64,000 nucleotides of DNA, taken from contig CM097883.1 in the NCBI GenBank assembly GCA_044892505.1, forward strand, positions 183,644,001 through 183,708,000, in the 5' to 3' direction. The position numbers and the translations under genes were made by a program. Positions 24,101 through 52,051 of this stretch are shown here, one piece after another (the stretch's first letter is position 1; each line of letters starts with the position of its first letter). This DNA comes from Schmidtea nova (lineage: Eukaryota). Under the pieces are notes generated by a model, which worked only from the letters and a program-made list of their open reading frames with translations, was not told where the DNA came from and ran no database searches.

Positions 24101-27100
24101 ATTATTACCGTAGATTTATAAAAATTTATGCAGCGACATCAGAAAAATTGAGTTCAATGTTAAAGAGTGAAAATAATTTTGTGTGGAATGAAGATAGAAA
24201 AGGAGCATTTTACGAACTTAAAAGCAGACTGTCAACGCCACCAGTGTTGGCCTTGCCAAATAAGGAAGGCGAATATATACTGGACACAGACGCTTCGCAC
24301 AATAGTATGGGAGCCGTTTTGTCACAGAGACAAAATGGAGAAGAAAGAGTTTTGTGTTATGCATCAAAAACCATGAGTAAGAGTCAGAGAAAATATTGTA
24401 TAACAAGAAAAGAACTATTGACAATATATACGTTTGTGCTGAAATTTAAACATTATTTGATGGGATCAAAGTTTTTAGTGAGAACGGACCACCAAGCGCT
24501 GAAATGGTTATTGAAATGGGATAATCCAAACACATCACAATACTGTGTTTGGAGAGCCGAACTAGAAGTCTACGACATGGTTGTCGAATATAGAAAGGGC
24601 GAAGAACACATAAGTGCTGATGCGATGTCCAGGTTACCTCCATGTGAACAATGCTTACTTAAGCATAAAGAACCGATGAAGCGTCGAAACGTAAAAGTAT
24701 ACGATGAATTAATAGATGTAAAAAGGACAGGAAACGACGATCTAGAATCAGAAAGGGTTTTGTGCGAACTGAAAGTACATGAACATGATTGGGGACAAGA
24801 CGATGATGTCGACATACAAACCATAATTAAAAGGATGAAACGTTCAGATTCTGAAAATGACAGAAACGTAGAAGAGATAAGAAGAGGTAGCAAAGAATTA
24901 CAAACAATATGGGCACACAGAAAAAAACTAAGGATCAGGGGCGATCTACTTTATATCCAGGAAGATAAAGAATACAGATTGATACTCCCGAAATTAAAGA
25001 GGAAAGAATTAATAATACAATTCCACAGTTTTCTAGGACATCCCGGAATCGAAAAAACCTATCGAATAATAAAGAATGAATATTATTGGCTTAATATGGA
25101 GTCTGATATATCAGAAGTAATAGGAAAATGTCAAGAATGCGCACACAACAAAAATAGAAACGGTAGAATAAGGGCACCATTTCAAAGCATAATTGGAGAA
25201 AAACCTTTTCAGATAATAGCAATGGACATAACAGGACCGTTCAAAACAACACAGAAAGGGTTTAGGTATATACTGGGTATAATCGATTACTTTTCGAAAT
25301 ATATAAGTTTAATACCAATGAGAAATATCGAGACAGAGAATATTCCAGAAGCGGTGTGGTCGCAGTGGATTTCAAAATTTGGAGCACCAGAACAAATACA
25401 TTCAGATTGTAGAAGTAATTTTCAATCAAGATTGTTTGCCGAATACTGTAAAATATTAGGAATTAGGAAGACTTTTACCTCACCTTACTACCCACAGAGT
25501 GATGGACTGGTAGAACGACTATTTGGAACTGCAAAAAGTATGATTGCAGCAGTGTTAGAAGAGAAGAAGAGCAAAGACTGGAGTGTAGTATTACCAGTAA
25601 TAGAGTTTGGATTAAGAACTACAATACAAAAATCAACGAATTATTCACCATATGAAATAGTATTTGGAAATCAAGCAAGATTACCCATATCAGCAATAAA
25701 GGTTAATACGAGACATTTTCAAGACTATGACGATTACGTCCAACAGCTGCAACTAAATTTATCAGATATTCACAAGAAAGTACGAGAAAATATGGATAGA
25801 CAAAGAGAGTGTATCGTCGCAAGATATAATCAGAATCGATGGCACAAAGAATTGATAGTAGGAGATAAGGTAATGATAAAGAATGAAGACAGGAGGGGTT
25901 TCGAGAAGAAGTATATAGGGCCATTCATAATAGAAGAAATAATGGATAAATGGACCTATGTGTTATATAGTGACAAAGCTAAAAAAAGAATAAGAAGAAA
26001 TTATAATCAAATAAAAGTAGTAAATGACGAGGGAGATTCTTGTAGAGTAAAGCCAACCAACACTAGTATTTGGTCAAGGGAACCGAAGACCAATTTAAAA
26101 CCGACGAGAAGATACCCATTACGGACGACGAGAAATCAGAAACCTAAGTACCGTTCGGTTGCCAGCGAGGGGATGTGATATAATTAATGAATTAATTATA
26201 TGCATAAGTTATATTGAATGTTTACGTTGTTTAAATATTCAGAGTTGGCAGAATTATTTAATTTAATAAAGTTTTAATATTGTAATCTTATTTTATTATT
26301 ATTCATTGGTTTTAGATTTCATATATAACAATAAAAATATTACAGTCATATGCTTGGAACATATCTATGGAATAGACATCGATCAGGGCATGTTCGATCT
26401 TCAATGCGTTGCCCTTGTCTTCCGCACTCAAATGCTGATATACTGCGAAAGCTGGTCTATCTAGGTATAACGGAATAATTGATTCTAAATCCACGATTTT
26501 CTGAATTTTTGCCACTAGCTTCACTTTCTGAATCCACTGTTGAACGTCACCTTCTCCTCTGAAAATAGGGATCATATTGTTCATATCAAATTATTCTCCA
26601 TTCAATCTACCAAAATGATTTCACTATCCAAATCTTGACAAAAACTACACTGCTTAGTTTTTGTAACTCTTTCATTTTTTAAAAACTAAATAGAAATTTC
26701 AAATATTTTATATGAAAAACAGATGAGATGACTCAAGTTTTGATTGATTTCAGGTCTACAATTTTTCTGTTTAGATGAAATTCATTGTTATACTATTTTA
26801 TTTTTCTTTTAACGATTTTATCGACCTTCCTTCTTCACGATTGTTTCTTTACTTAATTTCGGTAAATTTAAGGTTCGTTGAATAATCGTTTTTTTCAGTG
26901 CTATCTTCATTGATTTATTTATCCATCGTACTCAACTAAGCGACCCATAAATACAATATTATTCAAGTTATTTAGAGATAAATTACTATTTATAGTGTCA
27001 GTAATTATTTAATTACTATTTTGANNNNNNNNNNNNNNNNNNNNNNNNNNNNNNNNNNNNNNNNNNNNNNNNNNNNNNNNNNNNNNNNNNNNNNNNNNNN

Positions 27101-30852: not shown

Positions 30853-31744
30853 AGCAGTAGAATGTGAGTCAATCAGATATAGGTCAAGGCCCCCTCTAGA
30901 ATTTTTTTATGTAGGTCAATTTAAGAACATTTTACCGTCAAATCTTTTGCTTAAGGGCACCTTAGGTGTAAAATGTATGCCAAGGTTGATTTAAGGTCAT
31001 TTTAAGGTAATTTTAGATGAAATTTATGGTTTAAGGGCACTTTAAGGATAAAAAAGAATCAAGGTCGTTTTAAGGACACTTTAAGGAAAATAGGTAAAGT
31101 TCGTATTTCAGGTCACGATGAGGAAAATTAAGTAGGTCAAATATGTTTAAAGTGAATTTAATGTTAAATTAAGGAGGTCAAATACAATTTTCAAAATTTT
31201 TCTGTCAGAATTAAATACGTCGATTTCAGGTCAGGATGAGGACAAATTAAGTAGGTTGATAATAATAATAAATTTTTGTATGTCAAAATTAAGTAGGTCA
31301 AATATAATTTTCGAAATTTTTCTAAGTCAGAATAAGGAAGGCTATTAAAAATTTTCGAAATTAATCAAAGTAAGAATTATGTAGATTAATAATAATTTTC
31401 TAATATTTCTATGTCAGAATTTAGTAGGTTAATAATAAATTTCGAAATTTTTCCAAGTCAGAATTAAGTAGGTCACTTTAAGGATACTTTAAACTCCACA
31501 AAGTAGGGCAAACATAATTTTCAAAAAGTTTATGTCAGAAATAAGTAGGTCGAATATAATAATTTTCGATGTCAGAATTAAGTAGCTCAAAAATAAAAAA
31601 AATTTGAAAATGTTTTCTAAGTAAGAATTAACTACTAAGTGACACAACATTTTGTGACTAACATGGCATTGTAAGTACAAGTTTAATAAAGGCAATGCAA
31701 TCAAGCTGAAATATTAACAAGGTAAGTAAAGAGTAATTTGATTC

Positions 31745-31804
<60 letters not shown>
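31745..31804. repeat. (TAA)n microsatellite
   Basis: Direct reading of the sequence. Confidence 0.95.
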
Positions 31805-31806
<2 letters not shown>

Positions 31807-31951
31807 TTTTAAAACTTTGATAATAAAATTTTAAAATTAACACTAGTCAATAAATCGAAACTATAATAAAAATTTGGACAAGAAAAAACTAAATTAGATA
31901 ATATTAAAATTTATTAAATAAAATTTATGTAAATCGTGCACTGTCAATTCT

Positions 31952-32269
31952 CTAAATTGGAGTTATATTATCTTTTGTATCTACTTTATAACCCTGAATA
32001 ATTATATTAGTGAACCAGTGTTCTTGATCCTTGTATTCGATTGATTGGAACGCATCCTGGAAACAAGTTTTTCTGTTGTTGATGTAAATTGTTTCTTTGC
32101 TACTTAAACTTTTATTGATTTTCAATAAAACTTTATTTATTGCAACAACATCTTCTTTAGATATACTTGCAGCTAAACTGACATACAATAACTCTGTTAA
32201 TTTGACCGGGTACGATAATCTAAAAAGTATTTCTTCTACAAAGAAATAAATTTTATAGTCATGATACAT
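31952..32269 (-). CDS. Maverick accessory ORF, unknown function
   Basis: 105-aa ORF inside the TIRs; no family recognised. Confidence 0.35.
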   Translation of the reverse strand: MYHDYKIYFFVEEILFRLSYPVKLTELLYVSLAASISKEDVVAINKVLLKINKSLSSKETIYINNRKTCFQDAFQSIEYKDQEHWFTNIIIQGYKVDTKDNITPI

Positions 32270-32669
32270 TTGGACTGGTTTGAATTGTGTCTTGATTTTT
32301 CTTTTAATTTCTTCTTTCTTGCTTTCTTCACCATTGATTGTGTTGTTAAAAATTTTATAAGTAGGAAAATTTTGTGATGATGTTAAATTTGTGTGATGTA
32401 GTTAAATGTTTTAGTTAGTGTCTTTATTTAAAATGTTTAAGTATTTAGTTAATGTTTATATGTCTTTAGTTATTTGTCAAATTATTTAAAAACTATTTTA
32501 ATAAAGAAAACAGCTATATAAATAAAAAACATATTACTATTTAAAAACTTATAAACAAACTAAAAAACGAATTATAATAAATTTATTAAATGAAAACTAA
32601 AAATGGTAAATACAAATGATAACACATAAAAACCTAAATAATAACAATAAACATATATACTATATTCAG

Positions 32670-32888
32670 TTATTGTTGTGGTGATGATTGATTGCAATCT
32701 GTCATCTCATGATTACATTCGTCATAATCTGGAAGATCATCAGAAATCTTGCGATGACATTCATCAAAATCAGGTGATTCTGTCGATTCGTCGCATTGTG
32801 AAGATTAATCACATTGAACTGATTCGTCACATTCTGATGGAACCGGACAATCAACGGATTCATCAAATCCGGAGTATAATTGGGCCAT
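32670..32888 (-). pseudogene. Small acidic Cys/Asp/Glu repeat ORF (MAQLYSGFDESVDCPVPSECDESVQCD*SSQCDES...)
   Basis: Repeated (E/Q)CDES and DEC units; one internal TAA. Confidence 0.45.
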
Positions 32889-32967
32889 CTTTTAGGTTCT
32901 TCGTCTTCTTCTTATTTTCTAATTTTGCGGATTCTAACTCGAATCTTTTCAGTTCACTCAGCAGATT

Positions 32968-33165
32968 TTATATACGGAACCTCTCAATTCGGTCGGTACA
33001 ATGCCCCCATTGATAGGCACACAGTATGTGCTCGGCCATGAAAGGGATCTCAACATTCAGATTTGCGAGGTGGTCCAGCAATATTTGATTGATGTCTATT
33101 CCCGTAATACACTGGATATTATACAGGAATAGTTCGGGTGCTGTGTAAATCAGCTGAGTCATCAA
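32968..33165 (-). CDS. Maverick accessory ORF (HILCAYQWGHC), unknown function
   Basis: 65-aa ORF in tandem with neighbouring accessory ORFs. Confidence 0.4.
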   Translation of the reverse strand: MMTQLIYTAPELFLYNIQCITGIDINQILLDHLANLNVEIPFMAEHILCAYQWGHCTDRIERFRI

Positions 33166-33364
33166 ATTGGGGAATATTTCTTCCAGTTTGTTTTAATTTT
33201 TCATCACTAATAAATTCCTTGCATCCCATAATTATAAATCTCCCGGTCTTAACATATATTATAGGATATTTACAACTTCTTTCAATAATTTGCTGTGGTT
33301 TCCCCTTTAAGAAATTCATGTGAGATACATCAGTTTTACCCTTATAATTTATGTTGCTAGTCAT
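33119..33364 (-). CDS. Maverick accessory ORF, possible TBP-like fold fragment
   Basis: SNINYKG and IIYVKTGRFIIMGCK resemble the TBP repeat motif (LIF.SGK.V.TG.K). Confidence 0.35.
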   Translation of the reverse strand: MTSNINYKGKTDVSHMNFLKGKPQQIIERSCKYPIIYVKTGRFIIMGCKEFISDEKLKQTGRNIPQFDDSADLHSTRTIPV

Positions 33365-33434
33365 TACTTTAATGAATATTTTTTAAATATGAAAACAACA
33401 ATAACAACTATTATTTAAAATAAATATAAACAAC

Positions 33435-33471
<37 letters not shown>

Positions 33472-33493
33472 TGAAAATTATAAAATTATAAAT

Positions 33494-34105
33494 ATGGAAT
33501 TAAGAAATGATGCAGTGTTTCAAATTGTTGGCCCGAGTGGAAGTGGAAAAAATTTGTTTGTTTGTAAATTATTACAATCAAAATTATTCAAGTCTTTAAT
33601 TTAATAAAATTTATTGGCAAAAGGGATGAACATGGATTGACTCAAGATCAATTTTGTAAAATAAAAATGACAATCATAAAAGGTTTCGATAAATATTGGT
33701 CATTTAGATTTCGACAAGGTGATGTTATTATTGATGACTTGTATCAAGAAGCAAATAGAGAAAAGGATTTATAACTTATTTACAAAAATTGCTAAACACA
33801 AAGGTGTTACAGTAAGTTTTATTACTCAGAATTTATTTCACAATGGTGACAGTCATCGAACTCGTAATTTGAATTTTCAATATCTAGTTGTTTTTAAAAA
33901 TCCTAGAGATGCAGCAGTTATTGATTTTCTTGCAAGACAAGCATGCCCATCTAATCCTTATTTCTTGATTGATGCGTTTCAAGATGCTACAAAAGCTCTT
34001 CATGAATATCTTTTTCTTGATTTCATACAACAAAGTTTATATGATTTAAGAGTTAGAACAGATATTTTCAACCAGGAAGGAGCCATCGGTTATAAACAAA
34101 GTTAA
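33494..34105 (+). pseudogene. Maverick packaging ATPase (FtsK/A32-like), frameshifted
   Basis: Walker A GPSGSGK, Walker B IIDDL, ITQNLF and FKNPRD motifs. Confidence 0.92.
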
Positions 34106-34446
34106 TTAGATTTATATTATCAATCATGTTAATGAAATCTTAAGTAAAGTTTTTGCGTTTGATAAATGCTAGAAAATCGCAGAAACTAAAAAAACAAAGA
34201 AATTTGGAGAAAAAACCAATTGCAAAGAATAGTTATAAACAACCGAAAAAATTAATTATGGATAATATTTCGCAGAATAATCGCATTAAAAATACTTTAA
34301 AACCAAAACAAATACATCATCGTAGTTTCCCATTTTTTACTTAAAGCCCCAAGTATTAGAAGAATGAGTATTTTACAATCATTTCCTAATTACGTTATTG
34401 ATGATTTATTAGTAGGGGAAAGTGAGCGCACAGCCCCACTTTTTTT

Positions 34447-34905
34447 CAACTAGCAACGGTTGCTAGGGTAAATACACACATCAAGATATTCCTCAATTCA
34501 GGTGATGCCAGGGTGAACGTGCACACACATCAATATATATATATATATATATATATTCCCCGATGAACCTGTTGCCAGGGTAAACACACACACATCAAAA
34601 TATTCCTCGAGACAGGTATTGCTAAGGTAAGCACACACATTACTATATAATCACCGGGGAGATGTTGCTAAGGTAAATACACACATCAAGATATTCCTCA
34701 ATGCAGGTGTTGCTAGGGTAAACACACATCAATATATATTCACCGAGGATCCTGTTGCCAGGGTTAACACACACATCAATATATTCCTCGAGGCAGTTAT
34801 TGCTAAGGTAAGCACACACATTAATATATAATTACCGGGAAGATATTGCTAGGGTAAATACGCACATTAAAGTGTAGTGCATTGGAATCTGTTGCTAAGA
34901 TAAAC
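34447..34905. repeat. Subterminal tandem array (~45-50-bp units, GTTGCTAGGGTAAAYACACACATCAA), left arm
   Basis: About ten diverged units; mirrored, with extra units, at ~43735-44390. Confidence 0.9.
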
Positions 34906-37766
34906 ACGCATATTTTTAAAAATCATATTTAAAAAACATATTTTTAAAAATAAATAATAAAAATGTATGTTATTGTTATAATAATAAAAATAGTATTTGT
35001 AATGAATAAATAATATTATAAATAATAATAACAATAACAATATTAAAAATTTTACAAATAACAATAAAATATTATAAGAATAACAATATTATTACAAAAA
35101 TAGAAATATTAATAATACTTATGTTATTGTTATTAATGTAAATATTAGAATAANNNNNNNNNNNNNNNNNNNNNNNNNNNNNNNNNNNNNNNNNNNNNNN
35201 NNNNNNNNNNNNNNNNNNNNNNNNNNNNNNNNNNNNNNNNNNNNNNNNNNNNNNNNNNNNNNNNNNNNNNNNNNNNNNNNNACAATATTATTACAAAAAT
35301 AACAATAGAAATACTAATGTTATTGTTAATAATATTAATATAAGACTAATGATTAAAATAATGNNNNNNNNNNNNNNNNNNNNNNNNNNNNNNNNNNNNN
35401 NNNNNNNNNNNNNNNNNNNNNNNNNNNNNNNNNNNNNNNNNNNNNNNNNNNNNNNNNNNNNNNNNNNNNNNNNNNNNNNNNNNNNNNNNNNNNNNNNNNN
35501 NNNNNNNNNNNNNNNNNNNNNNNNNNNNNNNNNNNNNNNNNNNNNNNNNNNNNNNNNNNNNNNNNNNNNNNNNNNNNNNNNNNNNNNNNNNNNNNNNNNN
35601 NNNNNNNNNNNNNNNNNNNNNNNNNNNNAAATATTATTATGAAAAATAATAATAAAAATAATACGTAAAATATTAAAAGAAAAATAATAATAAAAAAAAA
35701 ATTAATAATAAAAATATTAAAGTATTTGTTATTAATATCAATAATAATTATTACATATAAATAATAATGTTAAAAACAATAATAATGGTAATAATGAATT
35801 AATAATAGTAATAATGGATGAATAATAATGTTAAAAATAATAATAATTATGGTAATAATGNNNNNNNNNNNNNNNNNNNNNNNNNNNNNNNNNNNNNNNN
35901 NNNNNNNNNNNNNNNNNNNNNNNNNNNNNNNNNNNNNNNNNNNNNNNNNNNNNNNNNNNNNNNNNNNNNNNNNNNNNNNNNNNNNNNNNNNNNNNNNNNN
36001 NNNNNNNNNNNNNNNNNNNNNNNNNNNNNNNNNNNNNNNNNNNNNNNNNNNNNNNNNNNNNNNNNNNNNNNNNNNNAAAATATTAATAGAAAAATTAATA
36101 ATAGAAATGGTAATGCCATTGTTTTTAATAACAATAATGATAATAAAAATAATAATAAATNNNNNNNNNNNNNNNNNNNNNNNNNNNNNNNNNNNNNNNN
36201 NNNNNNNNNNNNNNNNNNNNNNNNNNNNNNNNNNNNNNNNNNNNNNNNNNNNNNNNNNNNNNNNNNNNNNNNNNNNNNNNNNNNNNNNNNNNNNNNNNNN
36301 NNNNNNNNNNNNNNNNNNNNNNNNNNNNNNNNNNNNNNNNNNNNNNNNNNNNNNNNNNNNNNNNNNNNNNNNNNNNNNNNNNNNNNNNNNNNNNNNNNNN
36401 NNNAATTTGATTATTTAAATACACTTAAGAATAATAAGAATAATATTTATACAGATAATTTAATTATATATAAAATATCACAAGAATAGCATTATTATTA
36501 CAAAAATAACAATAGTATAATAAATTAGTGTTAACGTTATTGTTGTTATAAAAAAAGATAATAATAAAATCATAGTAAAATAATAATCATAATAAAAAAA
36601 AAATAAGAAGAATAAGAAGAATAAGAAGAATAATAAGAAAAAAAATAAGAAAAAAAAACAATAAGAAAAATAATAATAATAAAAGATTATTAATAAAAAA
36701 TGTTATTGTTATTAATATAAGAATAAGAATAATAATGATAATGATAAAATAATAAGAAAAATTATAATTATAAAAAATTATTAATAAAAATGTTATTGTT
36801 ATTAATATAATAATAAAAATTATAATTATAATGATAAATAAATAAAGAATAATAATAATAATAATAAAAAATAATAAAAATAATAATGGTAATAATGTTA
36901 TTAATAAAATTTTAATTATTAAAAATAAAAATAATAATGATAATAATAATAATTTTTACTAATTATATTTAATAATATATTATTATTTATTAAAAGAACT
37001 TCTTTAAAAATTAATTGATATTAAAGTTCTTGTTATAAGATCATTATCTAATAATTAATATAAAATATTTAATAATAATTACAATAATAAAAATTTAAGT
37101 AAATAATTTTAATATTATGAAAAATAATAATAATTGATTTCAATTATTATATTCTTAACTAGAATTGTTTTAATAATTAGTAAACACAAAGATGTAAAAT
37201 TTAAATTATTTACAAGTAATTTAAAAATATTAATTTACTATAATAATTTTCATATAGAACATATTATTTGCTATGATAGAAAATAAATTATTTATTAATA
37301 ATTAATTTACAAAAACCTTAATTACTAAAAAATTTGTAAAAAATAAAACAATAAGTAATATTAATCAATATTCAAATTAATTTTATATTCAAATTAATTA
37401 ATTAATTATTATAAAAAATTAGAATAATTATAATTAAAACTAGAATTGTTTTAATAATTAGTTATAAAATAAAAATTCAAATTCAAAAATTGTAAATAAT
37501 TTTCAAAAATTAGTAAACACTACAAAACTAATTAAAAAATAATTAATAATTTAAATAATATAGTTAATTATTTTAAGTTCTCATTAGTATTTATTAACTT
37601 ATCTATGATAAACATTACAAATCTCTTTGAATAATAAATAAAGATTATCCGTTAAATTACAAAATTGATAAAGAAAACTAATTATTAAATAATTTAAATT
37701 AATATTTATATACAAAGGTAATTAATTATAAATTGCAATCATTAAATAAATTATTAAAATACTTAC

Positions 37767-37937
37767 AGTTACTTTCTTTTCTCTTTTCATCGTTAAATTT
37801 ATTTTCTTTTGGATTATCCATTGTTTCAGATGTTTCAACATTGTAACCAATAAAGTTGTTCATATTGTTGTCGACATCGTTGTTGTAATCATTGATCATG
37901 GTAATATCCATATTGTTGATGTTGTTGTTCATTTTAT
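37767..37937 (-). CDS. Spliced Asn-rich exon at the centre of the foldback element (MNNNINNMD...KRKESN)
   Basis: 48-nt GTAAG...TTTTAG intron at 37985-37938 upstream; ATG at 37932; GTAAGT donor at 37766. Confidence 0.5.
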
Positions 37938-38330
37938 CTAAAATAAGTTGATTATTTAAAAAATTTAAAACAAAAATTAACTTACCAAATTTAGGTTGCA
38001 GTAAAAAGTGATTCTCAAATGAAAAACTATTGTTTATATACTAAATTCAAAACTTTTTAAACAATCAAATTCGAGGAAACATACGCACACGTTTGTAAAT
38101 ACCACAGTGTAATTTATTTTTACAATTAAACTTTTTAAAAATTATTAAACACATAATTTATTGTCATAAATATATGTCATCATTTAATGATAAATATCAA
38201 TTATTATTAAAATACAATGTAATAAATTAAGATTAATTTTAAAGTTAAATTACACTAATAAATTATAAAAATTATTACAAGTAATTAAAATCAAATAAAA
38301 AAAAAAGTTTAATTATTCGATAAATTGTAA

Positions 38331-38420
38331 ATTAATTGAAATAAAAATTAATTAATTGAAATAAAAATTAATTAATTGAAATAAAAATTAATTAATTAAA
38401 ATAAAAATTAATTAATTAAA
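38331..38420. repeat. 20-bp tandem repeat (AATTAATTGAAATAAAAATT) x4-5 in the foldback spacer
   Basis: Direct reading of the sequence. Confidence 0.85.
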
Positions 38421-41252
38421 AGTAAACTAATTATTCACAAAGTTATTAGTTTTTACATAATGTATTATTGTAGAGAATTAGAATATAAATTGTTACAGTG
38501 AAAACATAATTAAAGTATCAATCAGCAAATAAAATCAATTATTTACAACAAAACCCACGTGTAACACGATAATTTTTAAATTTCTAATCAAACAATTTAG
38601 TGGAAAATTTATACATATAATGAAAACTCTAAAAAAGTATTTTAAAATTACAAAAATAACAATAAAAAATGTGTGCAACAAGAAAAATGACTAATTTTAT
38701 ATTTTAATTTAAGCCATTTTATAGGAAATTAAATTCTACATATACACTGTTAATGTGAAAACTCATTATCTTTATTACAACATCAAAGAAAACCAATTAA
38801 TAACAACAAAACATGTGTGCAGCGCGCAAAACACAACATTTTAAACATCTGAAACAATGGATAATCCAAAAGAAAAGAAATTTAACGATGAAAAGAGAAA
38901 AGAAAGTAACTGTAAGTATTTTAATAATTTATTTAATGATTGCAATTTATAATTAATAACCTTTGCATATAAATATTAATTTAAATTATTTAATAATTAG
39001 TTTTCTTTATTAATTTTGTAATTTAACGGATAATCTTTATTTATTATTCAAAGAGATTTGTAATGTTTATCATAGATAAGTTAATAAATACTAATGAGAA
39101 CTTAAAATAATTAACTATATTATTTAAATTATTAATTATTTTTTAATTAGTTTTGTAGTGTTTACTAATTTTTGAAAATTATTTACAATTTTTGAATTTG
39201 AATTTTTATTTTATAACTAATTATTAAAACAATTCTAGTTTTAATTATAATTATTCTAATTTTTTATAATAATTAATTAATTAATTTGAATATAAAATTA
39301 ATTTGAATATTGATTAATATTACTTATTGTTTTATTTTTTACAAATTTTTTAGTAATTAAGGTTTTTGTAAATTAATTATTAATAAATAATTTATTTTCT
39401 ATCATAGCAAATAATATGTTCTATATGAAAATTATTATAGTAAATTAATATTTTTAAATTACTTGTAAATAATTTAAATTTTACATCTTTGTGTTTACTA
39501 ATTATTAAAACAATTCTAGTTAAGAATATAATAATTGAAATCAATTATTATTATTTTTCATAATATTAAAATTATTTACTTAAATTTTTATTATTGTAAT
39601 TATTATTAAATATTTTATATTAATTATTAGATAATGATCTTATAACAAGAACTTTAATATCAATTAATTTTTAAAGAAGTTCTTTTAATAAATAATAATA
39701 TATTATTAAATATAATTAGTAAATATTATTATTATCATTATTATTTTTATTTTTAATAATTAAAATTTTATTAATAACATTATTACCATTATTATTTTTA
39801 TTATTTTTTATTATTATTATTATTCTTTATTTATTTATCATTATAATTATAATTTTTATTATTATATTAATAACAATAACATTTTTATTAATAATTTTTT
39901 ATAATTATAATTTTTCTTATTATTTTATCATTATCATTATTATTCTTATTCTTATATTAATAACAATAACATTTTTTATTAATAATCTTTTATTATTATT
40001 ATTTTTCTTATTGTTTTTTTTTCTTATTTTTTTTTCTTATTATTTTTCTTATTCTTCTTATTCTTCTTATTTTTTTTTATTATGATTATTATTTTACTAT
40101 GATTTTATTATTATCTTTTTTTATAACAACAATAACGTTAACACTAATTTATTATACTATTGTTATTTTTGTAATAATAATGCTATTCTTGTGATATTTT
40201 ATATATAATTAAATTATCTGTATAAATATTATTCTTATTATTCTTAAGTGTATTTAAATAATCAAATTNNNNNNNNNNNNNNNNNNNNNNNNNNNNNNNN
40301 NNNNNNNNNNNNNNNNNNNNNNNNNNNNNNNNNNNNNNNNNNNNNNNNNNNNNNNNNNNNNNNNNNNNNNNNNNNNNNNNNNNNNNNNNNNNNNNNNATT
40401 AATTATTATTTTTATTATCATTATTGTTATTAATAACAATGGCATTACCATTTCTATTATTAATTTTTCTATTAATATTTTNNNNNNNNNNNNNNNNNNN
40501 NNNNNNNNNNNNNNNNNNNNNNNNNNNNNNNNNNNNNNNNNNNNNNNNNNNNNNNNNNNNNNNNNNNNNNNNNNNNNNNNNNNNNNNNNNNNNNNNNNNN
40601 NNNNNNNNNNNNNNNNNNNNNNNNNNNNNNNNNNNNNNNNNNNNNNNNNNNNNNNNNNNNNNNNNCCATAATTATTATTATTTTTAACATTATTATTTAT
40701 CCATTATTACTATTATTAATTCATTATTACCATTATTATTGTTTTTAACATTATTATTTATATGTAATAATTATTATTGATATTAATAACAAATACTTTA
40801 ATATTTTTATTATTAATTTTTTTTATTATTATTTTTCTTTTAATATTTTACGTATTATTTTTATTATTATTTTTCATAATAATATGATTATTTTNNNNNN
40901 NNNNNNNNNNNNNNNNNNNNNNNNNNNNNNNNNNNNNNNNNNNNNNNNNNNNNNNNNNNNNNNNNNNNNNNNNNNNNNNNNNNNNNNNNNNNNNNNNNNN
41001 NNNNNNNNNNNNNNNNNNNNNNNNNNNNNNNNNNNNNNNNNNNNNNNNNNNNNNNNNNNNNNNNNNNNNNNNNNNNNNNNNNNNNNNNNNNNNNNNNNNN
41101 NNNNNNNNNNNNNNNNNNNNNNNNNNNNNNNNNNNNNNCATTATTTTAATCATTAGTCTTATATTAATATTATTAACAATAACATTAGTATTTCTATTGT
41201 TATTTTTGTAATAATATTGTTATTTTTGTATAATTTTATTATTATTTTTAAA

Positions 41253-41283
<31 letters not shown>

Positions 41284-41292
41284 TCAATATTA

Positions 41293-41327
<35 letters not shown>

Positions 41328-44300
41328 TTTATCATTATCATTAATATTATTCTAATATTTACATTAATAACAATAACATAAGTATTATTAATATTTCTAT
41401 TTTTGTAATAATATTGTTATTCTTATAATATTTTATTGTTATTTGTAAAATTTTTAATATTGTTATTGTTATTATTATTTATAATATTATTTATTCATTA
41501 CAAATACTATTTTTATTATTATAACAATAACATACATTTTTATTATTTATTTTTAAAAATATTATTTTTTCTATTAATATTATTATTATATTTTATTATT
41601 ATTTTTTTTTTTTAATTATTAATAATTCATTATTACGATTATTATTATTATTTTNNNNNNNNNNNNNNNNNNNNNNNNNNNNNNNNNNNNNNNNNNNNNN
41701 NNNNNNNNNNNNNNNNNNNNNNNNNNNNNNNNNNNNNNNNNNNNNNNNNNNNNNNNNNNNNNNNNNNNNNNNNNNNNNNNNNNNNNNNNNNNNNNNNNNN
41801 NNNNNNNNNNNNNNNNNNNNNNNNNNNNNNNNNNNNNNNNNNNNNNNNNNNNNNNNNNNATACCTTTAATATTTATATTATTATTATTTTTCTTTTATTA
41901 TTTTTAATATTATTTGTATTACTATTATTATTTTTCCTAAACATATGATTATTATTATGATTATTATGATTATTATTATTATTATTTTATTATTATAATT
42001 ACTATTTTTATTATTATAACAATTATATACATTTTTATTATTTATTTTTAAAAATATTATTTTTCCTATTAATAAAATTATTATTATTCTTATTATTATT
42101 TTTTTTTTAATTATTATAATTATTATAAATATCATTATTACCATAATTATTATTATTTTNNNNNNNNNNNNNNNNNNNNNNNNNNNNNNNNNNNNNNNNN
42201 NNNNNNNNNNNNNNNNNNNNNNNNNNNNNNNNNNNNNNNNNNNNNNNNNNNNNNNNNNNNNNNNNNNNNNNNNNNNNNNNNNNNNNNNNNNNNNNNNNNN
42301 NNNNNNNNNNNNNNNNNNNNNNNNNNNNNNNNNNNNNNNNNNNNNNATANNNNNNNNNNNNNNNNNNNNNNNNNNNNNNNNNNNNNNNNNNNNNNNNNNN
42401 NNNNNNNNNNNNNNNNNNNNNNNNNNNNNNNNNNNNNNNNNNNNNNNNNNNNNNNNNNNNNNNNNNNNNNNNNNNNNNNNNNNNNNNNNNNNNNTCATTC
42501 TTATTAATATTATTCTTATATTAGTATTACTAATATTGCTATTTTTGTAATAATATTGTTATTCTTGTATTATTTTATCATTATTTTTAAAATTATATTG
42601 GTATTATTATTATTATTAATATTATTATTTCATCTTTTATAATTACTATTCTTATTAATATAACAATAACATACATTTTTATTATTTATTTTTAATAATA
42701 TCATTTTTCNNNNNNNNNNNNNNNNNNNNNNNNNNNNNNNNNNNNNNNNNNNNNNNNNNNNNNNNNNNNNNNNNNNNNNNNNNNNNNNNNNNNNNNNNNN
42801 NNNNNNNNNNNNNNNNNNNNNNNNNNNNNNNNNNNNNNNNNNNNNNNNNNNNNNNNNNNNNNNNNNNNNNNNNNNNNNNNNNNNNNNNNNNNNNNNNNNN
42901 NNNNNNNNNNNNNNNNNNNNNNNNNNNNNNNNNNNNNNNNNNNNNNNNNNNNNNNNNNNNNNNNNNNNNNNNNNNNNNNNNNNNNNNNNNNNNNNNNNNN
43001 NNNNNNNNNNNNNNNNNNNNNNNNNNNNNNNNNNNNNNNNNNNNNNNNNNNNNNNNNNNNNNNNNNNNNNNNNNNNNNNNNNNNNNNNNNNNNNNNNNNN
43101 NNNNNNNNNNNNNNNNNNNNNNNNNNNNNNNNNNNNNNNNNNNNNNNNNNNNNNNNNNNNNNNNNNNNNNNNNNNNNNNNNNNNNNNNNNNNNNNNNNNN
43201 NNNNNNNNNNNNNNNNNNNNNNNNNNNNNNNNNNNNNNNNNNNNNNNNNNNNNNNNNNNNNNNNNNNNNNNNNNNNNNNNNNNNNNNNNNNNNNNNNNNN
43301 NNNNNNNNNNNNNNNNNNNNNNNNNNNNNNNNNNNNNNNNNNNNNNNNNNNNNNNNNNNNNNNNNNNNNNNNNNNNNNNNNNNNNNNNNNNNNNNNNNNN
43401 NNNNNNNNNNNNNNNNNNNNNNNNNNNNNNNNNNNNNNNNNNNNNNNNNNNNNNNNNNNNNNNNNNNNNNNNNNNNNNNNNNNNNNNNNNNNNNNNNNNN
43501 NNNNNNNNNNNNNNNNNNNNNNNNNNNNNNNNNNNNNNNNNNNNNNNNNNNNNNNNNNNNNNNNNNNNNNNNNNNNNNNNNNNNAAAATTAAATTATATA
43601 TCGAAAGTTATTAGTTAAAAAATATGTCGAACATCTATTCGGTATGTTAATCACCTAATTAAAATAAAAAATAAATGTCATTCAATAATAAAAATATTGA
43701 CATGTGTTATTTGGTGCATATAATGATTATTGTATGTGTGTGTTTTTATCTTAACAACATCCTCCCCGGGGACTATTTATTGATGTGTGTATGTTTACCC
43801 TAGTAACAACTGCATTGGAGATGATATATTGATGTGTGTGTGTGTGTGTTTACCCTAGTAACAACTGCATTGGGGATGATATATTGGTGTGTGTGTGTGT
43901 GTTTAACTTACCTACAGGTTCCGAGGGGACTCCTTATACGCGCGTGTTTATCTTAGCAACAGATTCCAATGCACTACACTTTAATGTGCGTATTTACCCT
44001 AGCAATATCTTCCCGGTAATTATATATTAATGTGTGTGCTTACCTTAGCAATAACTGCCTCGAGGAATATATTGATGTGTGTGTTAACCCTGGCAACAGG
44101 ATCCTCGGGGAATATATACTGATGTGTGTTTACCCTAGCAACACCTGCATTGAGGAATATCTTGATGTGTGTATTTACCTTAGCAACATCTCCCCGGTGA
44201 TTATATAGTAATGTGTGTGCTTACCTTAGCAATACCTGTCTCGAGGAATATTTTGATGTGTGTGTGTGTTTACCCTGGCAACAGGTTCATCGGGGAATAT

Positions 44301-44704
44301 ATATATTGATGTGTGTGCACGTTCACCCTGACAACACCTGAATTGAGGAATATCTTGATGTGTGTATTTACCCTAGCAACAGTTGCTAGTTGAAAAAAGT
44401 GGGGCTGTGCGCTCACTTTCTCCTACTTTTATTGAAAAGTTTAATTAAAGTTGTTAGAGGTAAAATCAATATAAGTGAATCTAATAGAAAAGTTTTGAAC
44501 AAACACGATAAACCATTGTTATCACTCGTAAAAACAAAAAATAGAAAACTAATGCGTAAAATAATATATAAACAACAAGGAAGATTTATTGCAGCATTGT
44601 TACCATTATCATTATTGGGATGTGCTGATTTACTAGGAAAACGGTCATAAACAATCGGACAATCGTTGCCTAATCTTATTTTAAACTTTAAATCTTCTTT
44701 TTTA

Positions 44705-45447
44705 ATGGATAGGATATGAACGAACCCAAAACACGAAGCAGTTTTCGGTGGAGTCAAAAGGCTAAGCAAAAATGTATTGAATTCGAGAAAACAGACTCAA
44801 AGTTGGTTATCGGGGCAACTTCTAGACAAACCGATGCTGAAATGTTTTTCGACTCGAGCATATAAAACATAGAATTAATGATTTGCTGGAAATGGATTTG
44901 ACAGAAATGATTCAGTATTCAACAATTAACAAGGGATAAAAGTATATTTAAACATGTATTGATGTTTACAGTCGTTTTGCTAGGGCTATTCGAGTAAAAT
45001 CTAAATTTGCTAATGAAATGGCTTTTGCAATCAAAACAATGTTCAAAAGTGGGCGTCCAACTAATTTACAAACTGATTTGGGTAAGTTTATATATATTAT
45101 TTTATAAAATGATAATTATTTATCTAGGTAAGGAATTTTATAATAGTAAAGTCAAGGAAGTTCTAAATAAAATCAATCATTACTCGGTATTCTTTCAATT
45201 CAAAGCAGCTCATGTTGAAAGATTTAGTCTTACATTAGGAGATCGTCTGAAGAAATATTTTGTGCATCAAGGGAATAAAACATGGATTAATGTTTTATCA
45301 CAAATGATTCATAGTTATAATCATTCTGCTCATCGAGGTAATAATGCAAATAAACCTGCTGAAGTAGTTGATTGTGAAAATATTATGAATGATACGAAAA
45401 TAAAGAAATCAAAATATAAAATTGGTGATGATGTTCGAATTATTTTA
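44705..45447 (+). pseudogene. Maverick retroviral-like integrase with a 46-nt intron (45082-45127)
   Basis: AVFGGV, EMDL, CIDVYSR, LQTDLG|KEFYN, AAHVERF, YNHSAH and YKIGDDVRI motifs; several stops and frameshifts. Confidence 0.9.
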
Positions 45448-46460
45448 CCAATATTTTACCAAGCAATAGTTGTTCTGATATACATTCAGATAACAGTGCC
45501 ATTAAATCCATAGTCAATCTACAAAATCCGATTTATTTAGAGTGTATTTTGAAAGTCGCTCTCTTGGACTTTTCATTTGTGTAAAATCATTTCCATTTTA
45601 TAGTAAAGCCAAAAATGAATTCAAAATGAAACAATTGCAGTCACATTATAAAAATATTGTAATTGACAATGAAGTAGATGAAATTGATATATCTGATCCT
45701 GCCAATGATATTCCTCAAATATAAAGCGATAAGAATTTTCTTTATTTCAACTGTATTTATTACCCCTTCACTATAACATTTGATACTTTGGCAATGACAA
45801 AAAGATTAAAATTACCGAAACAGAGTTATCAAGGTCCTACAGATATATACAAAATGCGGTTACCTGGATATAGCAAATTTGGAGAAAAGTTGGAAAAAAA
45901 TAGAATAAAGATAGAGTACAAGGCTGATACTAAATTTACATATACATTTAACGATAATTTTTACATATTGAAATTGGAAGAACTGCAATCATATTTGAAT
46001 CAAAATTGTGCAAGTATTTTTAAATCATTGAAATTGGTAGATGACTTACTTCAAATTCAGTTTGAATACGGATATTAGTAAAGTTACTTTTCCCAGAAAC
46101 CTCACAAAAACATTAGGACTAGCGAAACAAACATATACTGAAGATGGAAAAACAAATGAAGAAATACATAAACCAAAAATAATTAAACTTCATCAACAAT
46201 TATTCATCTACAGTAATACAGTGAATCCTATAATTGTTGGCGAATCTTTAGTTCCCATGTTAAAGTTGGTATGGATTGAAAAACATGAACAGGATGAAGT
46301 TGTGCAAATACAAGTAGAAAATCCCATGTTTTTATCGGTTTCAACTTCTTGTATAAACAATATAGAAATTAATATCAGAGATGATAGAGGTAATTTAATA
46401 AACTTTCCAAAAGATTCAAAAACTCATTTGACTCTACATTTTCGAAAAAGCGATAAGTAA
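45442..46460 (+). pseudogene. Maverick minor capsid (penton) protein, frameshifted
   Basis: LP..SNS N-terminus; C-terminal LFIYSN...IVGESLVPML...IEINIRDDRG...LTLHFRK. Confidence 0.85.
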
Positions 46461-46850
46461 TCCCAATATAATTTCATTGTACAGTAATAGCCAAACTGGT
46501 GGCGATTTATCGTATTTTGTAGGGAAACAGTATGGATCAGATTGATTGAAAACTATTGGAAGATTTGCACTTTCGATTTCTAAACAAATAGATAGTTTTG
46601 GAATGAAAACTGCTAGAGATGTGATCATGAAAGATCATAAAATATTACCTTCATTGAAAACAAATGCTTTGGCTGCACTTAATAAAGCTTTTCCTTCTAT
46701 TACAAATGCTCCCTTCTATTACAAATGCTTCCTTCTATTACAAATATGTTTACAAAAATTGAACCAGAACCTGAACCGGTAAGGCCAAGACGTAAAAAAG
46801 GTAGAAAACGTATAAACGAACGAATGAAAGGTCACGGAACTATATTTAAA
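46454..46850 (+). pseudogene. Maverick small core-like protein
   Basis: SQTGGDLSYFVGKQYGS..KTIGRFAL pattern located between penton and capsid. Confidence 0.55.
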
Positions 46851-46852
46851 GA

Positions 46853-47260
46853 ATGATTTGCGGTAAATCTGAATTATGTATTTTTGATTGACCATCACCC
46901 CAAGCTGTTATTGAATATGGAGTATTTGAAGATGTATTTCCAATGAATTCTATTACAGATAGTAGAAATGATGTGAAATTTTACATTAACGGTTCTCAAA
47001 CCGAATATTTAGATTTGAACCATACTTTATTATGCGTTACTGTCAAGGTTGCAGATAAAGATAAAATTAAATTAGCTGATGCGAGTGATGTAGTACCAAA
47101 TAATTACCTGTTTCATACACTCTTCAAAGATGCGATTCCTAGATTTAATAATATAAAAATTGAGGGTGGAAACAATACATATGCACACAAGGCAATAATC
47201 GAAACTATTTTAAATTATACGAGTGATGCAAAAGAAACTTGTATTTCTGACCTAAAGTAA
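46853..47260 (+). pseudogene. Maverick major capsid protein, N-terminal part only (cut off by the right TIR)
   Basis: CGKSELCIF, FYINGSQTEYLDLNHTLL, NNYLFHTLF and YAHKAIIETILNY motifs. Confidence 0.9.
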
Positions 47261-49071
47261 TTTCGTAAATTATTATTATTATTGACCTACTTAATTCTGA
47301 CGGAGAAAAATTTCAAAAATTATTATTGACCTACTTAATTTGTCCACATAATGACAAAGAAAAATTTTGAAAATTATATTTAACTTACTTAATTTAACCA
47401 TAAATTCATCTTTAAAATATTTGACCTACTTAATTTGTCCTTATAGTGACCTGAAAAACGACATTTACCTACTTTTTTGTCCTCAATGTGTCTCTAAAAT
47501 GACACTGACCTACTTTTTTGTCCCTAAAGTGTCCTTAAACAATGAATCTGAATTTAAACAATAAAACGACCTTTAATCAACCTTGGCCTACTTTTTTGAC
47601 TTTAAAATGTCCTTAAGCAAAAAACTGACCCTTAAGTGTCCTTAAATTGACCTACATAAAAACTTCCTGGGGGAGGTCTTAACCTATATTTGATGGTCTC
47701 ACATTCTATTATTGCGGGTAATCAAATAAATTGTTCTGTGTTGGGTTTCATTTATTTTCGATAATTAAAAGACACGAGGAGTCAGGTCTTTGACCCGATC
47801 TTAAACAAAGTAAAATAACCCAACAATTTTTATAAAGAATAAATCAATTTTTTTAAAACGTACACAAATTTGAAAAACAGCCTTTTTACAATTGTTCTTT
47901 GTGTACACATTTGAAAAAGTCAGTGTCGAAAACTCGTATACTTTTAACAATTATCGCTTCTCCATAAACATTTGTAAGAAACGAGAAATTATTTAGACTC
48001 AGTACAATGAAGAAATTTATGTTATTTCCTGTAACATTCATTTTAGCTTTGAAAAACGAGAAATGGCAAAATCGTTGTATTTAGTTCACATAAAAAATGT
48101 CACTATTGAAATTTAATATTTTCAAATTATATAAGAATAATTCAGGAGGTTATCAAAATGTGATTCGGGGGAAATTTTTAAAAATATATACGCCAATAAA
48201 TGAGGAATGGGGATTTAGTATATTCATACATAAAAAACTATTTTTACTCGGTTATTTTGAGTTTATTTTCAAAAAAAGCACTAAGTAGCAAGTAGTCTTT
48301 TTTTGATGATGATTTTGTTTGTTTTTGTTAATGCCCTGTCTCAATTGATTTAGGAGGATCTTGGTCGGCCAACCGGCTACTAGTTCCCGATGTGTTGGAA
48401 AAACCAAACCGAAAAGTCGGAAGAGACATTCAAATCATCGTCTTATTAAATTATATACACTGATACGGGTGAAAGTAAATTATGAGGGAAGAAATCAAGT
48501 TATTAAAGTATGGGAAATATTAGATTGAAAAATAGAGGTAGAACCCTTCAAAAGTTTTCGAACAAGTAAACTAAAAGAGAAATTATAGATGGTCATAAAT
48601 AACATAAAGTAATGTTACAGAAAGTCACGAGTTGATAAGTTAAAAGTACCTTTGAAAAAAGACTGAGTAAGCGCTTAAAACCTATCGGCATAGGAACCCG
48701 TAAGAGAATATAATAAGTAGTTTGGGTAACAAAGCTCACCTGATTATTGAATTCTTGTATCACCGTATACATTACAAGTTTAACTATGGGTAAACAAATG
48801 AGGTAATCTAGCATTTTCATGATGGCGTGTTTGTTACTGTAATCCCTAGCAACTACAATTTTTAACAACCAATTCAACCGCATATCACTAAGAAATAATT
48901 TTCCTAAACTGAGTTGTTAATTTACTACAAATATTAAACTAAAATTCATAATCATTCATAATCATTTAATAAAAAACAAAATTCAAAGCACAAATTTATT
49001 TTTAAAAACTAAAGGAAAATATGAGAATTTGTTTTTTTTCAGTCAATAAATAATGCCAGTGATGCTTTAAA

Positions 49072-49912
49072 TTATATTTTATCAATAATTGGACTTTGCA
49101 ATTGAACGATATCAGAAGATTTGTCCCAGAGATCCTTCGATAAATACATGGAATCTTCAACACGATCTGGCCAAGAAATTGATTTGAAATTAGAAAATAA
49201 TTCATCACTGGATGATTTCAATTCATTGCTGATTGCACAATGGACAATCGAATGACAAGCATCTACTGGATCTTTCAGGAACAGCCACATCATAAATTGT
49301 AGAATCGGTTGTAAAAATATGTTATAACTCGAAATGATATTTCTACTCAATGATGTGTTAATCATGCCTCCAGTAAACATTGTAATTATATTTACATTAC
49401 TATTTCCAGTTTTCTTGTCACGCAATCGACAATGGAGTTCTCGACTAAACAAACATAAAGCCAGTTTTGAATTAGCATATGCTTGCATTGGACTATATGG
49501 ATGATTGCTCAAATCAAGATTTGACATATTAAGTACACCTTTTTTGCACAGAGAAGAGGAAACAAAAATAATTCTAACCGGATCATTACTTAAATCTTCT
49601 ATTTTATTATCACCGTCTTCTTGAGAAACACATGAATTCAGATTAGGAAATTTTGTCAATAAGATATTTGTTAAAAGAAATGGACCAAGATAATTTACAG
49701 TCATATCCTCTTCAGTTTTCGTACATTGAACCATTCGAAAATGTCCTGTCATTACGCCAGCATTATTAATAAGAACGTCAATTTTTTCATGTGATAAACT
49801 TTTGCAAAAATCTTTAATTGAATCTAAGTTGGATAAATCAAGTGGAAGAACTGTTGCAATTTCACGTGTTTTGTTAATATTTTCTGCAATTTTTTCTCCC
49901 AAAATTATATTT
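49072..49912 (-). CDS. Short-chain dehydrogenase/reductase (RDH11-14/DHRS-like) exon; the N-terminal TGxxxGIG exon was not located
   Basis: LDLSNLDS, DVLINNAG, VNYLGPFLLT, VSS and catalytic YANSK motifs; TTTTAG acceptor at 49913-14; open frame to the stop. Confidence 0.9.
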
Positions 49913-50009
49913 CTAAAATTGATATATTTTATAAAAAATAAATCAAATTATAATTTTATTGTCTTTTATTTAAAATTGTTTATCAAGAAATTACAGTTAA
50001 ATTATATAT

Positions 50010-52051
50010 TGTTGGATCCACCATTTGGTCCACATTTAACATAAAAATAATAATAAGAAGAAATAAATAAGACTAAATTAAAATTAATATAATTGCGAGA
50101 AATTTCAGTAAAAACGAATTAAAAGTAATAAAAGATATGAAGAATATTGAAAAATTAGAAGAAATAGAATTGAAACTGTCAAAACTGTTAAGGAAAATGA
50201 TATTTAATTATATTTAAATAATAAGAAAGTGAAAAAAATAAGTAATAAAGAAAAAGAATTAATAAAATTTCTGTAAATTAAAACAAGAAAATGAAAATCA
50301 TATTTGTTGATAAAATTGATTTTATTTTTAATAAAATTACATTGATGACCATCAGATTGATGCTGATTGGTCAATGAACTGATCTGGTCAGTATAAATAC
50401 TGATCCAGATTCAGATTAAATTAATGATTTAAGTGTTTGAATTTTGACATAAATTTTGAGTTTATGCTTCAGAAGAATTTTTGTTTTCAAGAAAATTTAT
50501 AAAGGTATGCAGTTTGATATTTTTATTGTTATTGTTATATAATTCTATTACGATTTTTCTGTCATTGCATTAATTCATTTAATAAAATTTTATGAATAAT
50601 TCTAGTTATATTTTTTTTAATTTTTATTTGTTCAAGCTTCTTCCACTGTGTAATCGGTGGAAGGAGACAAGGGTATTAGATTATTTATATTATTCAGGAT
50701 TATATTTTGGTCGAGCTTCTTTCACTGTGTAATCGGTGGAAGGAGGCGAATTTATATTATATATTGTATTTAAGTATAGATATGTATTATTATGCAAGGG
50801 GGCTCCTGAACATCGTGAAATCGATGAAAGGAGGCATACTGTGCCGAGTAGAAGACTGCTCCGTACAGTTAGGCCGCCCAACTGGTATAAAGTGCCACTA
50901 GGAAGGTAGGATTTTACTAACCATAAATGCTAACATTTTTTATCACTGGATAGTATAACCAGTTGAAGTTTGATTTTGAGATACTAATTGATTTGATTAT
51001 TATCGAGTTTACTTCACCTTTGGATTAACAGAATGTTACCCTATTTTTACGATTGTCACATCTGGGGTTTGTTGGCATAAAGCGGCTGATATAAAGTCTA
51101 GAAATAAATATAAAATACACCTTTGAACGAAATAATACAAGAAATCGATAACTTTAATAGCGTAGTTCAGTGATCTACCACACAAATAGAGCATCAGCAA
51201 TGGATCAAATATTCAACACAGATAATTCATAATGAAATGTAATATATTATCCTGAACCCTGTACATAGGGCAGTAGATCTTAGTTATTTTTAATAATTTA
51301 TTATCCTGAGTGCTGTACATAGCACCGGCGTGAATAAATGAAATAAATTATCAAATGAATGTATCTGATCGCTGTACATAGCGACAGTGTTGAAAATATA
51401 ATATGTATATTATTTCTTTTCCTAAATTAGAAATTAATAATCGTAGAAATTATGAGAATTATTCAACCAAAAACCAAGTTCATATTGATAAACCATCTTG
51501 AATTCTAGAAAAATGTCAATCAAATCAGTAACTCTTAAATCAGAATTAGACAAGGCTTGGCGTATTATCCGCAGCCTTGAGAAGGAGATATCGAATAAAT
51601 CCGAAAGAATAAAAGAAGCCGACATCACCATAGCGAAGTTACAGAAGAGCTGGTTTAGCCCAGACCAAATGAAGGCACAACTCCTCAAGAATCAACGCTC
51701 TCGACAAGCGAATGATAATATAAAATGGAGCTAGAAGCAACAAAAATGGAGTTGAAAAAATGCTTAAAATCGGTAACGGCTTCTTACCTCAATCAAGAGT
51801 TGAAACAGCTCATACGTCCTATCACGTATCAGCATTGGTCTGAAGAGAAGTCAGGCTGTTCGAAAGGGACAAATACGGATGAACCATCTCAGGTTCGAGT
51901 AATCCCAGTACAAACTACACCAAAAAGCATAGAAAATCCGGAGGTTAAAAAGAAGAAAAACAAGATGGGCGCACGTCAGCGTCGTTGGAAAAAGCAAGTC
52001 CTACAACAATTGATACATCATTCAAAAGAAATACCGGAAATCGACTTAACT
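50010..52051 (+). mobile_element. Second, diverged LTR-A copy, 3'-truncated
   Basis: Same TGTTGGATCCACCATTTGGTC start, hairpin arrays and ORF; homology ends at a junction with the Tigger ORF. Confidence 0.88.
51498..52051 (+). pseudogene. LTR-A ORF copy 2 (1-nt frameshift at ~51722; runs in frame into the transposase start)
   Basis: ELDKAWRIIRSLEKE...KMGARQRRWKKQVLQQL. Confidence 0.85.

Follow-up and report, generated by a model that had tools for sequence, protein, structure and literature searches.

Intact vertebrate Mavericks (Polintons) span 12.7–24.6 kb, carry seven or eight core genes, have terminal repeats of 46–1,447 bp, create 6-bp duplications and end in the motifs (AGT)2//(ACT)2 or (AG)3//(CT)3 (PMC8097293); for Mavericks in general, terminal inverted repeats (TIRs) of 100–1,500 bp are given (PMC10748475). 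Here, we analyze a window of 64,000 nucleotides from Schmidtea nova (GCA_044892505.1, contig CM097883.1, positions 183,644,001 to 183,708,000, forward strand) in which a 10,017-bp insert, largely made of two inverted arms, sits inside a gene of a decayed Maverick. The insert is best read as a non-autonomous Maverick/Polinton derivative from a family other than that of the outer element. It resembles vertebrate Mavericks in its 6-bp duplication, AG-starting end motif, long TIRs and size of the same order, but differs in having 3.4-kb paired arms, no core gene and tips reading AGTAGG rather than AGTAGT.

In Repbase usage, ‘N1’ in the name of an element denotes a non-autonomous form. The zebrafish element Polinton-1N1_DR is named in PMC9341505, and repeat-only Polinton insertions are reported from C. 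elegans (bioRxiv 10.1101/2024.01.15.575659). Like these, the insert is a gene-poor or gene-less sequence with Polinton ends, whereas its multi-kilobase palindrome does not appear in the available parts of their descriptions.

Giant foldback elements provide a second comparison. Galileo copy 112 of D. willistoni, 9,021 bp long, combines tandem repeats and AT-rich segments with arms of 4,246 and 4,680 bp but lacks a transposase, and Galileo duplications measure 7–8 bp (PMC4168063). Tetris makes duplications of 8–10 bp, and its description suggests that foldback structure arose independently in several lineages (PMC4079207). The insert shares with these foldbacks, at ~9 kb, the lack of genes, unequal giant arms, internal tandem repeats and AT-rich segments; unlike it, Galileo and Tetris have 7–10-bp duplications, depend on cut-and-paste transposases (P, Mutator) and show no Maverick end motif.

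Nesting also has precedents. In Halocafeteria, Polinton-like elements are commonly nested (five Polinton-like viruses and nine virophages; bioRxiv 10.64898/2026.07.28.741278). Like them, the insert lies within an element of its own group, whereas the Halocafeteria elements encode genes, and their terminal palindromes are short (52 nt in one subtype) instead of forming multi-kilobase arms. Finally, phi29 mini-replicons and the hairpins of yeast killer plasmids are copy-back palindromic derivatives of protein-primed linear genomes. In these derivatives, as we propose for the insert, one origin-bearing end is doubled by template switching, genes are lost and a helper is needed; unlike the insert, they are free replicons and do not reside in an animal chromosome.

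Literature searches, whose scope excluded Repbase, most subscription papers and supplements, found no multi-kilobase palindromic gene-less Maverick, and the available text of PMC3014272, PMC6431247, PMC5499653, PMC11296320 and PMC12166617 contains no case of a palindromic Maverick. Giant gene-less foldbacks are already known from Galileo; we found none described with Maverick ends.

Results

Ends and target-site duplication of the insert

The insert begins with AGTAG at 34411 and ends with CTACT at 44427 (Table 1). TTTATT flanks it on both sides, and of the flank lengths from 4 to 10 tested, only length 6 agrees, confirming the ends and exact 6-bp target-site duplication proposed in the initial annotation. 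TTTATT has a frequency of 0.0033 among the 6-mers of the window, and AGTAG one of ~0.0007. A 6-bp flank match is weak evidence when taken alone, as two of the 834 AGTAG/CTACT pairs in the window show one, the second by chance. This duplication carries weight because it lies at the ends of a 499-bp, 95% identical inverted repeat and inside a split gene.

Both ends read AGTAGG, matching five of the six letters of the (AGT)2 motif, which comes from a list for vertebrates, and the AGTAG tip is common to the insert and the left end of the outer Maverick. Beyond the tip, the inner and outer terminal repeats are unrelated (local score 21, reached by 88 of 100 shuffles), as the initial annotation had also held. 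A special hairpin at the insert tips was considered and rejected (z −0.5 and −0.8). The leader of the insert end contains the palindrome CTAGCAAC-N-GTTGCTAG.

Table 1 Coordinates of the insert, its parts and the surrounding Maverick (window positions)
Feature	Position	Strand	Description
Outer Maverick, left part	30853..34410	+	Decayed terminal repeat; accessory frames (−) 31931–32269 and 33194–33364; A32-type ATPase in three frames, 33494–34102; first piece of split gene, 34337–34408
Target-site duplication, left copy	34405..34410	.	TTTATT, 6 bp
Left terminal repeat	34411..34909	+	AGTAG tip, ~47-bp leader, 10 subrepeats of 45–49 bp (one lengthened by a TA run, the tenth shortened); 40% GC
Left junction	34910..34937	+	Point at which the left arm lacks 2,378 bp of the right arm; joint marked by a short, imperfectly repeated tandem duplication
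Left inner arm	34931..37835	+	Very AT-rich, degenerate (AAT)n arrays; 98–100% complementary to 41570–38843 where readable
Candidate gene fragment (weak)	37729..38040	-	104-codon Asn-rich stop-free frame from spacer into left arm; 48-nt GTAAGT...TTTTAG intron-like stretch, 37985–37938
Spacer (loop)	37836..38842	.	Unpaired, 1,007 bp, ~19% GC
Right inner arm	38843..41570	-	Mirror of left inner arm
Right-only block	41564..43941	-	2,378 bp; AT-rich unit in diverged copies (86%), a unique stretch of ~150 bp, four extra terminal subrepeats; readable outer part highly repeated in public runs
Right terminal repeat	43942..44427	-	95% identical to left repeat (6 substitutions, 3 gaps); CTACT end
Target-site duplication, right copy	44428..44433	.	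6 bp
Outer Maverick, right part	44428..47713	+	Second piece of split gene, 44429–44647; integrase with stops, 44702–45441; partial homologues of the next two core genes, 45444–46689; capsid cut near 47242; decayed terminal repeat

Arms, spacer and foldback architecture

Arms of 3,425 bp on the left and 5,585 bp on the right enclose the 1,007-bp spacer, in agreement with the 3.4, 5.6 and 1 kb first reported. The accompanying description of the insert as ~90% palindromic holds for the space filled by the arms (90% of the insert) but not for the paired length, which is only 68% because the right-only block has no counterpart on the left. Bases that are N number 2,821, in 11 runs, leaving 72% of the insert readable; 5,099 of the 7,196 non-N bases are partnered at an identity of at least 90%. 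Apart from 2,378 bp that the left arm lacks, the two arms are colinear from tip to loop, and they differ by 15 substitutions and nine small gaps over 2,546 compared columns (0.6%). Colinearity and low divergence together argue for one recent duplication. On the simplest reading, both arms would originally have been ~5.6 kb long, with the left one later shortened by a single block.

Each terminal module is an array of subrepeats, 14 of 45–55 bp at the right end and 10 at the left, where the array breaks off within the tenth and meets the AT-rich body at a short imperfect duplication. This duplication resembles the product of templated end-joining and may have arisen in that way. GC content is 40% in the terminal module, 12% in the AT-rich body, which consists of degenerate AAT arrays, and ~19% in the spacer. 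The 499-bp terminal module is within the published range for Maverick TIRs (~50–1,500 bp), whereas pairing continues to 3.4 kb, above that range.

The subrepeats (34411–34909 and 43585–44427) also resemble the consensus X-box of RFX proteins; there are 10 matches in the 1,342 bp of the ends and five in the 54 kb outside, the former being one repeated motif and not independent occurrences. Contig joints within 43960–44360 skip or repeat whole subrepeats, and their number may thus vary among copies of the terminus; mis-placement on repeats would give the same pattern.

Foldback elements are marked by long unequal arms with internal tandem repeats and by a variable loop. The insert is built in this way, and its architecture is that of Galileo copy 112 of D. 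willistoni (PMC4168063). It could therefore be the foldback of a cut-and-paste DNA transposon, P/Galileo-like or Mutator-like, in which the subrepeats are transposase-binding sites and the Maverick-like tip is a coincidence; the lack of any similarity past the tip between the repeats of the insert and those of the outer element is consistent with such an origin. Nevertheless, we regard it as improbable. The flanks of the insert fit a duplication of 6 bp only, not the longer ones of Galileo and Tetris, AGTAG is rare in the window and the ends of the outer Maverick are themselves composed of 41–44-bp subrepeats, so that subrepeats are no argument against a Maverick.

Coding content of the insert

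No Maverick gene was found inside the readable 72% of the insert, where alignments with 125 open reading frames (ORFs) from 10 of 69 related loci gave no internal match; eight of the 102 ORF alignments reach the insert edges only, as run-over from the split gene. Searches of the insert against all 69 loci with blastn and tblastx returned no match, nor did a search of 34300–44500 against Rfam at E 0.1. The insert is not an autonomous Maverick. The initial statement that it has no recognizable Maverick genes thus stands for its readable portion; 28% is N, and the spacer contains a weak candidate for a small spliced frame.

The intron-like stretch of this candidate is one of three in the window, and in trials with resampled sequence the frame arose at a rate of 1.6% and the intron pattern at 2.8% (p ~0.02–0.03, post hoc). 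Searches of Pfam, Atlas and protein collections found no homologues of the frame, and no RNA run is among those listed as containing words from 36960–38839. As a weak lead, the frame may be a fragment of an accessory gene of the parent element.

The outer Maverick and the split gene

The outer element (~30853–47713) measures 6,844 bp without the insert, or 13% of the window without the insert. Its gene order follows that of the long loci among the 69, which runs ATPase, small basic gene, integrase, further core genes and capsid, and is the same as in L003, L015 and L056. The long reverse ORF of L056 matches DNA_pol_B_2 and also Endonuclease_7, the latter being the one match that it has in common with the long reverse ORFs of L003 and L015. 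The ATPase and integrase of the related loci match Pox_A32 and rve, and the capsid fragment of the outer copy is 76% identical to a 407-aa protein whose predicted model (pLDDT 67) matches the double jelly-roll capsids of an iridovirus (E 1e-13) and mavirus (E 4e-12). With a double jelly-roll capsid, an A32 ATPase and an rve integrase in Maverick order, the outer element is a Maverick. The capsid homologues are unrecognized by Pfam, sequence searches of the PDB with the capsid gave one spurious match and otherwise none, and none of 39 pattern matches to the capsid homologue in viral contigs was confirmed.

This outer copy is a decayed deletion derivative. Stops and frame changes disrupt its ATPase, integrase and capsid genes, it ends within the capsid gene, and no polymerase or protease gene was found in it. 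Its ends are 79% alike, with 60 mismatches in 356 positions (17%), and its flanks, GGTGGT and GCGGGT, agree in four of six letters, falling short of intact ends with an exact duplication.

Within the integrase gene is a 46-nt GTAAGT...TAG intron-like stretch (45082–45127, +), and alignments to the intronless homologues of L003 and L015 jump by about this length; vertebrate Mavericks are described as intronless (PMC8097293). The accessory frame at 33194–33364 (−) is 41% like an ORF of related loci (L003:2175–2618) that matches the TATA-binding-protein family (E 2e-17).

The insert splits a small gene, likened to pX in the initial annotation. Its two pieces match adjoining parts of homologous proteins (11 of 11 homologues for the right piece, nine of 11 for the left), and in eight of nine homologues the same residue ends one piece and begins the other, as a 6-bp duplication predicts. 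Thirteen homologues were found through a HMMER library with the right piece, and two of them, longer than 1,000 aa, were excluded; a word-index search with the right piece gave no match. The initial claim that excision restores a pX-like ORF is borne out in that the pieces match adjoining residues, but a second break with a frame change lies near 34338, and the gene is not otherwise intact.

Age and abundance

Evidence from public sequencing runs came from short-read contigs. Of the words of 36960–38839, 58–76% are present in each of four runs (three samples, one study, the same organism), the best-matching of which is possibly the source sample. Contigs of four of five runs were placed on 43585–49950, which includes the right end of the insert only; one of the four, a soil-metagenome run (share 0.26), gave only 35 contigs and was set aside, and statements about copies come from the other three.

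In these three runs a host dehydrogenase gene has depths of ~50, 12 and 13. Summed contig depth, which is not a copy number and is inflated by subrepeats, is hundreds to thousands of times that of the host gene over the inner terminus and the outer Maverick, and 250–1,300 times that of this neighboring gene at position 43641 in the right-only block; single contigs in the inner terminus reach ~90 times host depth. The inner terminus and the outer Maverick are both highly repeated. The inner terminus thus has more than a single occurrence, whereas a unique one would have spoken against the initial annotation. Given its depth at 43641, the right-only block is also repeated sequence, probably part of the normal end of its family. 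Between 24 and 29 contigs in each of the three runs extend past the capsid break of the outer copy, which is a member of an abundant Maverick family in this organism. Just outside the right end of the outer element, 47714–47830 is likewise far above host depth in three runs, and another repeat abuts there. No empty site and no other flanks occur among the rows listed for the placed contigs, which bear on the right end only.

Among the 40 best-supported rows of sequence differences (there are 159 further rows), none falls in the inner terminus and 38 in the outer element, a distribution consistent with a recent insertion into a much older element. The divergence of the arms is ~29 times below that of the outer ends (0.6% versus 17%), and, if both pairs began identical, the insertion is far more recent than the decay of the outer copy.

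Long AT-rich palindromes are hard to assemble, and with arms that are partly N and public evidence from short-read contigs, fold-back chimeric reads or a mis-joined repeat might have created the structure. That it is such an artefact is very unlikely, however. The arms differ by substitutions, by small gaps and by the presence of a 2.4-kb block in one of them; a duplication flanks the insert, the same gene continues on both sides, and sequences of both the terminus and the arm and spacer are present in public runs, even if the best-matching run is possibly the source sample.

Other elements in the window

Related Mavericks have long polymerase-type ORFs with an endonuclease-VII-like part, which a short fragment at 2134–2315 (−) resembles; the fragment is probably another Maverick relic. 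In a retrotransposon at 21177–26178 (+), the pol frame (RT, RNase H, integrase) is unbroken over 1,063 aa, and beside it lie fragments of another, oppositely oriented retrotransposon (20032–21041, −). At 52137–53837 (+) lies an unbroken 566-codon frame for a pogo/Tigger-type transposase (HTH_Tnp_Tc5, DDE_1). The window also contains a hairpin with 61-nt arms (2977–3099), a 650-bp element with 72-nt inverted ends (8339–8989) and a dispersed pair of 2-kb repeats, 71–75% identical (3088–5191 and 49999–52050).

Discussion

The insert behaves as a foldback satellite with Maverick ends. We consider it likely that these ends are of Maverick type and that a Maverick integrase performed the integration. 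The initial annotation went further, describing a gene-less foldback satellite that parasitizes a Maverick. A non-autonomous, Maverick-ended foldback nested in a Maverick of a different family is indeed present, but the parasitism finds no footing, as the host copy is decayed and belongs to an abundant family. Preferential targeting of Mavericks was rejected as unshown; with the outer copy already decayed, its family abundant and 13% of the window occupied by this one copy, chance nesting is enough.

How the palindrome formed is a separate question, for which we lean slightly toward template switching during strand-displacement copying of one end of the parent, before integration, with dependence on a helper thereafter. 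On this account, strand-displacing, protein-primed replication of a parent Maverick with these ends would have begun at one of them; after ~6.6 kb, the polymerase would have switched template and returned to the end from which it had started. The product would be a linear molecule with two mirror arms of ~5.6 kb, a 1-kb loop and no core genes. Having two correct tips, it could be replicated and integrated in trans by the polymerase and integrase of a helper, both of which Mavericks encode. The insertion itself, with its 6-bp duplication, took place in the small gene of an already decayed and deleted Maverick, presumably through a helper integrase, and the left arm, which now differs from the right by 2.4 kb, would then have lost that block.

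Several observations weigh against this account. The sequences searched contained no autonomous element with these tips: none of the 69 related loci matches, and the exact 20-nt tip pattern also has no match in viral and metagenome contigs, although these collections are not animal assemblies and the result has little weight. The sixth letter of the tips deviates from (AGT)2, and Galileo-type foldbacks, too, have terminal subrepeats, AT-rich segments and giant arms of unequal length. Moreover, 28% of the insert is unread, and the depth of the terminus may reflect ordinary Mavericks with these ends rather than palindromic copies. Finally, the terminal 500 bp of the arms have diverged more (6/501, 1.2%) than the inner arms (9/2,045, 0.44%; Fisher p 0.09), which leans toward arms made or homogenized after insertion.

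Slightly younger-looking inner arms would suit a one-off relic, in which a second-family Maverick inserted and was then rearranged in place, with genes deleted and one end copied over the other by repair, such that the palindrome itself was never mobile. The 2.4-kb loss with its small joint duplication points to repair events on this very copy, and a second palindromic copy was not seen. We judge this history rather unlikely. It requires a large deletion and a multi-kilobase inverted copy soon after insertion, because the arms have diverged by only 0.6%, and arm and spacer words are found at shares of 0.58–0.76 in four runs from three samples, although an orthologous copy would give the same result.

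If, as we prefer, the insert is a copy-back derivative mobilized by a helper, it may have counterparts. One can imagine, with considerable doubt, that palindromic Maverick satellites constitute a self-propagating class, in which copy-back defective genomes have become abundant families, recur in unrelated animals and compete for the polymerase, integrase and capsid of a helper in the manner of defective-interfering genomes, possibly with a small intron-bearing gene in the loop. Screens based on genes would miss such elements by design, since they demand core proteins; one Maverick screen required five (PMC10748475). Gene-less palindromes may therefore be an overlooked source of multi-kilobase palindromes, fragile sites and hairpin RNA.

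What is known of Maverick replication in animals comes largely from models. If Mavericks replicate as linear, strand-displacing genomes, gene-less palindromes that have two correct ends are to be expected as a by-product. As a single rearranged relic, the insert would be a curiosity. As a member of a family, it would make the replication model testable from genomes alone, through junctions, arm identity and helper dependence, and, if the satellite class is real, such palindromes would preserve, as genomic fossils, a record of free Maverick replication by strand displacement.

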